From: an uncultured Nitrososphaerota archaeon
GTDB lineage: Archaea > Asgardarchaeota > Njordarchaeia > Njordarchaeales > Panguiarchaeaceae
NCBI GenBank assembly: GCA_964636085.1
Contig: CAZWPQ010000002.1
Coordinates: 26,401 to 90,400, forward strand
DNA length: 64,000 nucleotides
Reading direction: 5' to 3'
Shown: one piece after another, positions 52,437 through 55,115 of the stretch
Numbering within the stretch: the stretch's first letter is position 1
Layout of the letters: every line of letters begins with the position of its first letter
The notes under the pieces: generated by a model
Told to the model about the DNA's origin: nothing
What the model saw: the letters and a program-made list of their open reading frames with translations, nothing else
Databases searched by the model: none
Made by a program: the position numbers and the translations under genes

Positions 52437-53998
52437 TCATTATGAAAAAACTATTTCTGCTCACCATAATTCTCTTCACAACACTCTATATGGTATATTA
52501 TCGCGTCACTTGCTATGAGAAAGCTACTTGTTTAGATGTTATTAGGGAAGGAAATACTGTACAGGAGATACAACTTGTCACGGTCTGGGATGTCCTTATA
52601 AGGACATATGGGTATAATCCAGAAAATCCACTATACTTTTTCCTTGGTGCTGCATTGAAGATATTTGATGTATTTAACCATATCCATGTTCTCATTGGAG
52701 AGGGAAATGACTGTTCAACTGCAGCCGCAATTGACAGATATAATGTAAGCGGTTACCTTATAAACAGGTGGTCCTCCGGGCTAATATTTGCTCCTGGTCG
52801 ACACATAGATGCATCACATTATGACAAAAATATATTCGTAATGGCCGCTGATGCAGATAACCTCTATATAATAAAGCTAAACTCAACGCTTGGGGAAAAT
52901 AATAGGACAATGATAGAGGATAACTTCAGATATTATGTAATGACCGCGGTGGAGGGCGTATACGTGGCGTATGGGAGAATAGATGCATCAGGAAATGATA
53001 TGAGTGTGAGGGTGATGAAGTTTGATGAGAATCTCACTGTGACATGGTGGAATGTTATTGATACAGAGTACCCTGATAGACCTCTTGCCATAGCATCGAA
53101 TGGGGAAGTTACATACGTCCTTTATGAGTCGTACTCCAAGGATAGTGGGGACATATTTATGATGGTTCTAGATTGTAGTAATGGCGATATTTTATTGAAC
53201 GAGATTATCCTTAGAGATAATCCTTGGGTAGAAAAAGCAACTATATGCCTCGGGGACAAGACATATGTTGCATTATGCATGGACAATGTGACTACAATAA
53301 TAGCACTGGATAACAGATTATCAGAAATTTGGGGTCTGACAATCAGGAATAAACTCATAAATGCAGAATGGATAAACGACACATTATACATATTCCTAGC
53401 AAAAGAAAATGAAAATACACAAACATTAAACCTAATAAAATTAGCACCAGATGGCACGACGATAATAAATGCAACATGGAATGGAAAATTATCAGATATC
53501 ACTGCGGCAACAACATACAATAATGCATACTACATAGCTGGAACAAACGATTATGGCAACAAAATAGAGCTTCATTTGATAAGACTAGAAAATGACAGTG
53601 ACTTAGATGGGCTTAGCGATAATGAAGAAAAAAACATAGGAACGGATCCACATAACTCAGACACAGATAGCGACGGAATGCCAGACGGCTGGGAATATGT
53701 GAATAACTTAGACCCACTAGACCCAACAGACGCAACACAGGACAATGACGGAGACGGACTAGACAACAAAATGGAGTACATCTATGGCACGGACCCAACG
53801 GATCCCGATACTGATGGAGATGGTTATAGTGATGGTTATGAGGTCTCTCATGGTACTGATCCGCTCGACCCAAACGACTATCCTGTTCCGTTCATTAGGA
53901 GATATTGGTGGGTACTGGTGATATCTATTGCTTCTATTGTTGTTCTTGTGGTATTCCTCCATAGGCATAGAGTTTCGGTGAGAAAGGTTGAGTCATAA
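52430..53998 (+). CDS. Membrane-anchored partner A: variable beta-rich ectodomain, TSP3-like repeats, conserved RRYWWVLVISI anchor
   Basis: Signal peptide MKKLFLL (probable start 52442); C-terminus shared with partners B and C. Confidence 0.85.
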   Translation: MVIIMKKLFLLTIILFTTLYMVYYRVTCYEKATCLDVIREGNTVQEIQLVTVWDVLIRTYGYNPENPLYFFLGAALKIFDVFNHIHVLIGEGNDCSTAAAIDRYNVSGYLINRWSSGLIFAPGRHIDASHYDKNIFVMAADADNLYIIKLNSTLGENNRTMIEDNFRYYVMTAVEGVYVAYGRIDASGNDMSVRVMKFDENLTVTWWNVIDTEYPDRPLAIASNGEVTYVLYESYSKDSGDIFMMVLDCSNGDILLNEIILRDNPWVEKATICLGDKTYVALCMDNVTTIIALDNRLSEIWGLTIRNKLINAEWINDTLYIFLAKENENTQTLNLIKLAPDGTTIINATWNGKLSDITAATTYNNAYYIAGTNDYGNKIELHLIRLENDSDLDGLSDNEEKNIGTDPHNSDTDSDGMPDGWEYVNNLDPLDPTDATQDNDGDGLDNKMEYIYGTDPTDPDTDGDGYSDGYEVSHGTDPLDPNDYPVPFIRRYWWVLVISIASIVVLVVFLHRHRVSVRKVES

Positions 53999-54032
53999 TC
54001 TCCAATTCTGGCTAAGGACTCACTACACAAAA
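53831..54032 (+). repeat. Anchor/junction repeat, copy A
   Basis: 179/202 identical, ungapped, to 58690-58891 (hand count); first 155 nt also match 56657-56811. Confidence 0.92.
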
Positions 54033-55115
54033 ACAGGCCCAGGGAGGATAGACACAGACAAGAACGGTATCAGTGATGCTTGGGAAGATTCTGATGGCGA
54101 TGGGGCATTCAACATTCAGGAGCTCATGATTGGGAAGAACCCAGCGAATCCTCATGATGTTCTTGGGATTCAACTTAGGGTTTCCCTTGAGTGGGATGCT
54201 ACTAATGAGGAGCTCAGGTGCATTAAGGAGGCTCTTATGATAGCGTCCAAATACATTTTCGACTATACTGATGGACACGCATTCATAAGCAAGGTCGAGA
54301 TCTATGACAATAAGCAGAACTGGAACCAGAGCCATGTTAGGATTTATGAAAAAGTGGAGGGTTACGCTGGAGCATCATTTGTTGGTGGGTACTGGTTCGT
54401 TAAGAAGTATGGAAGATTCACAAGTTTAAAGTTACCATGGTATATCTCCAATGGTAATCTATGTGTTCTTCTCTTTGACGCTATTGTATCCATAAATTAT
54501 GATGCTGTTAAGGATGATGTAATGTATTTTGCGGGAGTTCTCGGACATGAGTTAGCACACTATGTATTTTGGCAGTATGATGAGTATAAATATTTTACTG
54601 GAAATTATGACGAAGATGGAAATCCCATATGGGGTGATTACTCGGATTGGGACTTGCAAGAAGATTTTACTAATGCAGGTCTTTTAACGGTTATGGGTAT
54701 TGGCCAAGCGTGGATGATAGATGCCGAAACACAGCAGGAGCTCAGCACGTATTGCGATTATAAGAACCTAACAAGAATACTAGAAGATTCTGGTCTAATT
54801 GACATTGTCACGAATATAACGGCTCAATACTTTTACTGGTCCGGTATTGGTGTTACTCCTCGATCAACAATATTTTCATTGCGGGAGGAGGGGGAATACT
54901 GCATACATGCCTTTAAACCAAATCTATCTGATGCATCATCCTGGGCATCAATCATATATGCCATGAACATGCCAGGAGTATTCATATGGGATTTCTCTGG
55001 TTTATATTTTGTCCTTAGAGGATATGTTTACACGGGATTTCACGAGAGCATATCCTCCTATAGGCCTCTGCTTGGTCCATATACGATGGTCTGGTGGTAT
55101 ATGTGGATCCTATAG
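53988..55115 (+). CDS. Orphan alternative CLCA-like metalloprotease tip cassette (no signal peptide)
   Basis: Begins with the junction homologue FWLRTHYTKTGPGRIDTDKNGISDAWEDSDGDG; IKEALMIASKYIFDYTDGHAFISKV; GHELAHYVFWQYDEY (CLCA consensus HEWAHLRWGVFDEY). Confidence 0.8.
   Translation: MSHNLQFWLRTHYTKTGPGRIDTDKNGISDAWEDSDGDGAFNIQELMIGKNPANPHDVLGIQLRVSLEWDATNEELRCIKEALMIASKYIFDYTDGHAFISKVEIYDNKQNWNQSHVRIYEKVEGYAGASFVGGYWFVKKYGRFTSLKLPWYISNGNLCVLLFDAIVSINYDAVKDDVMYFAGVLGHELAHYVFWQYDEYKYFTGNYDEDGNPIWGDYSDWDLQEDFTNAGLLTVMGIGQAWMIDAETQQELSTYCDYKNLTRILEDSGLIDIVTNITAQYFYWSGIGVTPRSTIFSLREEGEYCIHAFKPNLSDASSWASIIYAMNMPGVFIWDFSGLYFVLRGYVYTGFHESISSYRPLLGPYTMVWWYMWIL

Follow-up and report, generated by a model that had tools for sequence, protein, structure and literature searches.

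The window analysed here, a stretch of 64,000 nucleotides (nt) on contig CAZWPQ010000002.1 of assembly GCA_964636085.1, comes from an Asgard archaeon and contains a locus of modular anatomy (Table 1). Its first gene, the carrier, encodes a large PKD-domain protein that ends in a variable zinc-peptidase-like domain, here called the tip (tip1), and is followed by the gene of a membrane-anchored protein, the partner of that tip (partner A). Directly behind these lies an open reading frame (ORF) encoding a second tip that is not attached to a carrier (tip2, the orphan), which has a partner downstream (partner B), and then comes a third partner gene (partner C). Both tips begin with a short Ca-binding segment, the junction, and it is over this segment that carrier and orphan resemble each other at the DNA level (the homology block). 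The earlier note on this DNA had described the ORF as an orphan tip cassette that starts at a recombination-ready homology block. The first part of this interpretation stands, as the ORF can be traced to the variable C-terminal module of the carrier, of which it is a displaced copy that starts at the shared junction and has a downstream partner of its own, while the readiness for recombination was overstated for this genome.

Table 1. Features of the tip/partner locus, in positions of the window
Feature	Position	Strand	Description
Carrier	46686-52436	+	1916 aa; leader, five PKD domains, TSP3 Ca-binding repeats, pre-tip region, tip1
Carrier junction (homology block)	51345-51495	+	encodes FWLE...DTDxxGxSDAWEDSDGDGxFNIQELxIGKNP; core 51423-51493
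Tip1 body	51496-52436	+	zinc-peptidase-like domain, HEFAH; 31% identical to tip2
Partner A	52430-53998	+	522 aa; TSP3_bac 1.4e-21; start overlaps carrier stop
Tip2 start signal	53977-53990	+	GGTGA 53977-53981, 6-nt spacer, TTG 53988-53990; inside the last codons of partner A
Orphan tip2 ORF	53988-55115	+	from the ORF list; TTG start, 375 aa; junction head aa 1-52; predicted adamalysin-like peptidase domain, HELAH aa 187-191; C-terminal Y.PL.GP[YF] motif
Homology block core in the orphan	54072-54142	+	64/71 identical to 51423-51493
Partner B, cognate to tip2	55094-56818	+	574 aa; FG-GAP_3 5e-10
Tip relic (probable)	56822-56980	+	third tip, deleted except for about its final 45 codons; PLECPH, ends ...YLWVSCVW-stop
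Partner C	56959-58857	+	632 aa; no intact tip ahead; 36% identity with partner B across 543 aa
Dead tip-head stub	58847-58930	+	LRHDFQFWLKTYYTK...; CTG instead of ATG/TTG; stop after 27 codons

The carrier matches the Pfam models PKD_4 (4e-66), PKD (6e-43) and TSP3_bac (2e-9). It has a hydrophobic N-terminal leader (by inspection) and lacks a C-terminal anchor, and its export appears to rest on a Sec-type leader only. Ahead of the tip there is a variable pre-tip region (about amino acids (aa) 1160-1550). In comparison with P0012, a carrier of 1921 aa that also has PKD domains, residues 1-1160 are ~75% identical and the remainder ~25-35%, with a local peak at the block. The reading frame of tip2 is open only from 53982, two codons ahead of the TTG, with a TGA at 53979-53981, and its N-terminus is hydrophilic, without a hydrophobic leader (by inspection). 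The earlier note was right about this ORF and its want of a signal peptide, as well as about the GGTGA placed 6 nt ahead of the TTG. In BLASTP the whole of tip2 aligns with carrier residues 1552-1912 (31% identity, E 1e-46), with the first 60 residues ~80% identical and an HExxH in both proteins. Judging from this alignment, tip2 and the C-terminal domain of the carrier are paralogues over the full length of the ORF. The peptide match just after the carrier's DGLP, from which the note had started, is real; the fall in identity that it described past the block applies to the DNA (~45-55%), whereas the protein similarity continues through the whole ORF. Tip1 and tip2 are the only tip copies in their own genome (2.4 Mb, 102 contigs, 83% complete).

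The tips form a family of strongly diverged sequences around a few fixed residues. All 12 aligned tips share the DSDGDGxFNIQE...IGKNP head, a DYTDG motif and the Y.PL.GP motif near the C-terminus; HExxH and a Glu eight residues later are invariant in the 12, the third His of metzincins is absent, and the tips are otherwise ~30% identical to one another. The tip gave no Pfam match at E 0.01 and, in a profile search of PDB sequences, no match even at E 10. The AlphaFold (AF2) model of tip2 is of moderate quality (mean pLDDT 55.8, ~75 in the core residues 60-290), and Foldseek placed it with the catalytic domains of adamalysin, ADAM and ADAMTS (probability 1.0, E about 1e-3). In VIA-align, which is independent of Foldseek, ADAM-8 reached a Z of 10.4 (root-mean-square deviation 3.5 A, 157 residues) and the top 15 were all ADAM, ADAMTS or snake-venom metalloproteinase (SVMP) enzymes (Z 8.5-10.4). 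The tip therefore models as an adamalysin/ADAM-like zinc peptidase without a named Pfam family, and the M12B motif of adamalysins and reprolysins (HExxHxxGxxH) was not found in the tips though the fold matches. A weak match to the Pfam family Peptidase_M64 was present in 3/12 tips (best E 1.7e-4). The M64 and CLCA zinc peptidases resemble the tip in having an HExxH followed by ...DEY; the CLCA match is not significant (E 2.5, 8 bits vs a cut-off of 25.6 bits). A HMMER scan of 1.8 billion representatives gave 1124 tip relatives, 26 of them below 1e-30, and the core of the domain is present in many long secreted bacterial proteins, some with the tail of the type IX secretion system (T9SS). Scanning nine of the distant relatives gave no Pfam name over the tip domain, and in 40 relatives outside the genus only the Ca-binding block matches, in long TSP3 proteins. 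All tips, including those of a Thermococcus clade (see below), end in Y.PL.GP[YF]T.V..Y plus 5-8 hydrophobic residues, ~20 residues in total (e.g. window 55050-55112); this ending is too short for a transmembrane (TM) helix and might act as a strand for docking or as a signal for sorting.

The protein encoded after each tip starts with a TM segment or signal; its ectodomain is divergent and its TSP3 stalk conserved, and a TM segment and a basic tail form the C-terminus. Partner A follows this layout, and its tail belongs to a 300-nt repeat (D1). In partner B, a TM segment (6-23) is followed by an eight-bladed beta-propeller (about aa 40-407), the TSP3 stalk and a second TM segment (547-566); the AF2 model (pLDDT 77.7) has eight-bladed propellers as its best Foldseek matches (E 5e-13). 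Tips and downstream partners are inherited together: similarity between tip bodies predicts that between the ectodomains of the partners behind them (Spearman 0.67, Mantel p 2e-4 in 12 pairs, which are mutually related, so that the p value overstates their independence). Between a tip and the partner upstream of it no such relation was found in five pairs, in which the downstream relation is weak too (0.13). In G002, a genome of the same genus, contig C35 carries orthologues of tip2 and partner B, with 86% and 85% identity, respectively. Synonymous divergence (pS) between the orthologous partners is 0.22 in the propeller and 0.52 in stalk plus TM, so that the conserved flanks and the variable cassette have different histories; between the orthologous tip2 cassettes it is 0.49 in the head vs 0.35 in the body, a difference that is not significant. 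Read-through from partner into tip by frameshifting was rejected, since the TM segment and basic cytoplasmic tail would leave the tip inside the cell.

Comparison with relatives shows the same types of tips both fused and as orphans. Four tip/partner pairs stand in tandem on an 11-kb contig of G002 (C85), tandem arrays also occur on G002:C167, and a partner-tip-partner stretch is found on G004:C12. The earlier note had allowed that homologues of the ORF might always be stand-alone genes, never fused to a PKD carrier, but tips are fused to such carriers in three cases, namely the window carrier, P0012 and a carrier fragment on G002:C215. In a maximum likelihood tree of 18 tip bodies, the fused tip1 of the window is sister to orphan P0011 (support 100/100), the fused tip of G002:C215 is sister to orphan P0016 (100/99), and the tip of the P0012 carrier is sister to the clade holding tip2. 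Breakpoints fall at or near the junction. The DNA of L028 (P0003) and that of G002:C215 are 75-85% identical in the pre-tip region, ~90% in the block and ~45% after it. The long orphans of L028 and L030 keep parts of the carrier pre-tip region and look like displaced carrier 3' ends, which are also described for bacterial CDI and Rhs loci (PMC4927057). P0003 and P0005 had been candidates for fused carriers and were rejected as such, as their contigs show 5'-truncated fragments that keep the pre-tip region, that is, long orphans; P0015 is probably the window's own carrier. On L030, a low-coverage metagenome contig, P0004 (2288-4213) joins a partner propeller directly to the final third of a tip that is tip2-like (85% identical), and in P0005 (369-2288) TSP3 repeats connect a partner fragment with a pre-tip region and tip. 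These chimeric genes may be either real rearrangements at repeats or assembly chimeras. A scan of public genome contigs with the tip alignment gave one locus only, and a scan of public metagenome contigs returned TSP3-repeat matches and no new tips.

The homology block itself was studied in detail. Its core identity of 64/71, claimed in the earlier note, was reproduced exactly, with 21, 14 and 11 nt as the longest exact runs, and belongs to a direct repeat (D5, 51342-51493 vs 53991-54142, 75% identity). The sliding-window identity plot that had been proposed was run with windows of 45 nt and gave a peak of ~87-89% over 51420-51495/54069-54144, with 55-65% for ~80 nt upstream, background before 51340 and ~45-55% downstream. 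The copies are spaced by 2649 nt (3 x 883, thus 883 codons), so that a crossover between the cores (51423-51493 x 54072-54142) would be in frame and would have the outcome foreseen in the note: tip1 and partner A would be lost and tip2 fused to the carrier, with partner B adjacent. Over 84 nt the two blocks are 83% identical (family range 77-91%); recent intragenomic gene conversion between them was rejected, 83% being the family average, and on these identities the block is to be regarded as a family-wide conserved junction and not as a fresh homology tract. Since the homology is short, with an exact run of only 21 nt, and its identity typical of the family, switching in this genome is possible but should be rare. 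The wording "recombination-ready" is too strong for two copies that are 83% identical over 84 nt. At identical amino acids, the same codon is used in 62.6% of cases in the block vs 42.3% in the remaining tips, and after correction for amino-acid composition 1017 same codons of 1625 were observed vs 745 expected. For the window pair the count is 15/21, where the tip sequences outside the block would predict 9.6 (binomial p 0.015). Because of this codon excess and of the BLASTP E-value, the likeness of the two blocks is judged to be more than chance.

A second aspect concerns whether the orphans are expressed genes or a silent reserve. At nine orphan junctions, GGTGA or GGTGG is followed by 6-7 nt and a start codon, which is ATG at seven loci, overlapping the partner stop as ATGA, and TTG at two (the window and its orthologue). 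The GGTGA sequence pairs with the 3' end of archaeal 16S rRNA. Tip2 and its orthologous orphan on G002:C35 are both intact at a synonymous divergence (dS) of 0.52, with a nonsynonymous divergence (dN) of 0.073 and a dN/dS of 0.14, which indicates purifying selection. Given that a never-translated cassette would not stay intact over such a divergence, the orphan tip2 is very probably translated as a protein of its own. The suggestion that the ORF might be translated alone has gained support in this way, from the conserved starts as well as from the dN/dS, at the expense of a silent-cassette reading.

We consider it probable that these features, taken as a whole, result from an exchange of cassettes, in which tip/partner modules swap between carrier and orphan positions. 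A module consists of the short Ca-binding junction and the variable adamalysin/ADAM-like zinc-peptidase domain, and is inherited with the gene directly downstream, for a membrane-anchored, variable eight-bladed propeller on a conserved TSP3 stalk. The variable cassette then comprises the tip body and the partner propeller, flanked by the tip junction on one side and by the partner stalk, TM segment and next tip head on the other. Over evolutionary time, cassettes may move from carrier-fused to orphan positions and back by homologous recombination in these conserved flanks. As for function, tip and partner would most likely represent a polymorphic secreted protease effector and its cognate surface inhibitor or immunity protein. 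From the invariant HExxH and Glu, we infer that the tip may be an active secreted protease; together with the architecture, the same residues suggest that it could be toxic and be neutralised by the partner, which would neutralise or bind its own tip at the cell surface. The anchoring of the partner at the surface implies that both action and neutralisation would take place outside the cell.

Several points weigh against cassette exchange or against roles of tip and partner as effector and immunity protein. No recombinant molecule of this genome was seen, and the window's two block copies are no closer to each other than copies in different genomes; with blocks that are 83-90% identical and a longest exact run of 21 nt, nothing points to a recent exchange here. 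At the protein level, the junction motif is retained both by a second archaeal clade and by distant bacterial homologues, which carry the domain internally, so that structural constraint explains part of the DNA conservation of the block; recombination and structure both seem to contribute. The carrier and P0012 part at about aa 1160 and not at the block, and exchange points are therefore not confined to it. The conserved orphan starts and the dN/dS of 0.14 suit ordinary expressed genes equally well. Some comparison contigs come from low-coverage metagenomes (3-6x), in which repeats may give chimeric assemblies, and P0003 and P0005 are 5'-truncated. On the functional side, the partner is large and extracellular, unlike the classical small cytoplasmic immunity proteins, while protease activity, toxicity and tip-partner binding are all inferred.

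The explanation that fares best after cassette exchange is that of ordinary tandem paralogues, which we regard as unlikely. Here, tip and partner would be a two-gene unit that forms arrays by duplication and divergence, the block would be a constrained Ca-binding N-terminus, and fusion to a carrier would be occasional and stable. The numbers within the genus, with at least 10 orphans vs 3 fused tips, agree with this, as do the conserved ATG/TTG with GGTGA, the ATGA overlap typical of coupled translation and the purifying selection seen between orphans. The retention of the junction motif in distant bacterial homologues and an identity of the window's block pair that does not exceed the family average point in the same direction. 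Yet the orphans are leaderless although they have an extracellular-type Ca repeat and are related to secreted carriers here and to T9SS-tailed proteins in bacteria. Moreover, fused tips are mixed with orphan ones at well-supported nodes of the tree, L028 and G002:C215 part directly after the block, synonymous-site identity in the block is in excess, and the long orphans of L028 and L030 retain pieces of the carrier pre-tip region, as expected for displaced 3' ends.

It is also conceivable, but improbable in our view, that the cassettes are exchangeable and that tip and propeller form a polymorphic ligand-receptor pair for self/kin recognition or adhesion, comparable to TgrB1/TgrC1, TraA or VARTIG in its suggested self-nonself role. 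Both proteins are of the extracellular or surface type and their variable parts co-vary, the partner is a large anchored propeller and not a small inhibitor, the carrier is without a membrane anchor of its own, and the conserved C-terminal motif found in every tip could dock on a conserved element of the partner. For the variable Ig module of Thermococcales, a part in self-nonself discrimination has been put forward as a hypothesis (PMC8416519). On the other hand, HExxH and Glu are invariant across tips that are ~30% identical, which suggests that catalysis is kept, whereas pure binding modules usually lose it, and the occurrence of tip-less partners and of tip relics is in keeping with the poly-immunity seen at toxin loci. 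Within cassette exchange, roles as effector and immunity protein are considered clearly more probable than recognition. Bolder still, and in our estimate quite improbable, would be a cassette-switchable self-recognition or adhesion code in which neighbouring cells display an integrin-like (FG-GAP) propeller that is bound by its cognate ADAM-like domain on a PKD/thrombospondin stalk, with a separate regulatory or assembly role for the leaderless orphans. If true, the ADAM, integrin and thrombospondin adhesion of eukaryotes would have a prokaryotic counterpart made of the same kinds of domains. Finally, that the tip2 ORF is what remains of an earlier carrier end, now decaying and maintained only because the downstream partner is useful, is hardly credible: its TTG start in place of ATG, the two dead relics nearby (Table 1) and the degenerate Ca motifs of some G002 orphans could be taken that way, but the frame of 375 codons is intact with all invariant residues of the family, its G002:C35 orthologue has remained intact as well at the divergence and dN/dS given above, and the TTG is common to both.

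The footprints around partner C were also analysed. Several tip C-termini match the 140-nt spacer ahead of partner C weakly, but collinearly and in one frame (tblastn, best E 0.006 in a 400-nt database), with PLECPH where tips have PLxGPY. This spacer region is a probable relic of a deleted third tip, and because it precedes partner C, that gene is likely a partner which lost its tip. Behind partner C, the junction runs on for 15 codons (LRHDFQFWLKTYYTK), then diverges and stops. Besides its single orphan pair, the window therefore holds a partner without a tip, a relic and a stub, and the latter three are footprints typical of cassette loci. In G002, an orphan tip on C167 (L024 3525-4463, minus strand) has a degenerate Ca motif (DAWENSGGDG) and an insertion after the junction, and may be a cassette in decay.

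Among bacteria, polymorphic effector systems that keep reserve cassettes are prominent in competition; for archaea, to our knowledge, such systems are known only from computational surveys. The closest parallel is offered by the orphan modules of contact-dependent inhibition (CDI) and Rhs systems (cdiA-CT/cdiI, rhs-CT/rhsI). In the model for these, homologous recombination in retained conserved sequence can fuse the orphan to the main gene (PMC4927057, where Poole 2011 and Koskiniemi 2014 are cited). The locus in the window resembles them in its large secreted protein with a conserved body and a variable C-terminal module, in the cognate gene directly downstream, and in displaced module/partner pairs in tandem behind it in the same orientation. 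As there, a stretch of the orphan homologous to the main gene allows a fusion that deletes the resident module with its partner, and partner-only genes and fragments accumulate. The differences are as clear. Compared with CDI, there are no two-partner secretion (TPS) or FHA domains, no VENN and no CdiB, the Pfam matches of the carrier being limited to PKD and TSP3, and the host is an archaeon; compared with Rhs, there are no RHS/YD repeats in the Pfam scan, no PxxxxDPxGL and no type VI secretion system (T6SS), and the junction reads FWLE...DAWEDSDGDGxFNIQE. Unlike in both, the variable module belongs to one diverging zinc-peptidase family instead of unrelated toxin folds, the partner is a surface-anchored beta-propeller protein of ~550 aa instead of a small cytoplasmic one, and the orphans keep their starts and are under purifying selection. 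The locus is therefore a member of neither the CdiA nor the Rhs family. The cassettes at this locus are not separated by transposase or integrase genes.

The marks by which polymorphic toxin systems are recognised (PMC3482391) were found here, namely a variable C-terminus on a conserved body, a co-varying downstream gene and displaced cassettes. In the account of Zhang et al. 2012 (PMC3482391), trafficking or stalk domains are followed by a variable C-terminal domain that evolves by recombination, and the toxin domains include zincins with HExxH such as Tox-MPTase. In that account, the Tox-MPTase families have no known immunity proteins and are mainly found as parts of RHS proteins (PMC3482391); unlike them, the tip matches no named Pfam family and has an adamalysin-like predicted fold. 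Among archaea, the VARTIG system of Thermococcales consists of a large Ig surface protein, with a C-terminus made hypervariable by recombination and variable genes after it, which its authors compare with polymorphic toxin systems and for which they found no counterpart outside Thermococcales (PMC8416519). The locus is similar to VARTIG in its logic and differs in the variable domain, an Ig domain on an arCOG07710 protein there and a peptidase-fold domain here. The main text on VARTIG contains no mention of HExxH, peptidase or metallopeptidase, and uses "protease" only for a TIGR03900 profile match, a possible cleavage site and a suggested serine endoprotease (PMC8416519). In our literature search, with the archaeal survey of Makarova et al. 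2019 (mBio) outside the comparison, no such system was described in Asgard archaea. What is unusual about the locus is its combination of an unnamed adamalysin-fold peptidase family as variable module, a co-varying eight-bladed propeller at the surface and orphans that look expressed.

A locus in a complete Thermococcus genome (CP003651.1, L031 10001-18441) does carry a peptidase tip. It encodes a carrier of 1307 aa with a homologous HExxH tip at the C-terminus, followed by an N-terminal-TM protein of 315 aa, a paralogue of 316 aa and a broken third copy, from a family that is unrelated to the propeller partners. A relic of a tip C-terminus lies at 18274-18441, and the orphan tips of the Thermococcus clade start at a common point just ahead of the junction. 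The Thermococcus locus is a second, distant version of the system, which suggests that the design is widespread in archaea. Thermococcus is more tractable for experiments, and the locus in the window offers a way into the question of competition or recognition between archaea and their neighbours.

The array in the window is followed directly by a gene pair (59087-59710) with matches to DUF433 (7e-27) and DUF5615 (7e-13). Such pairs are usually read as a toxin-antitoxin-like module. Genes of AAA_14-type ATPases stand on both sides of the locus, at 44702-46117 on the plus strand, with an additional DUF4143 match, and at 59815-61068 on the minus strand. At 62260-63999 lies the first part of a further large surface protein, which is cut off by the window end; its right-handed beta-helix (NosD-like, 1e-66) precedes many TSP3 repeats.

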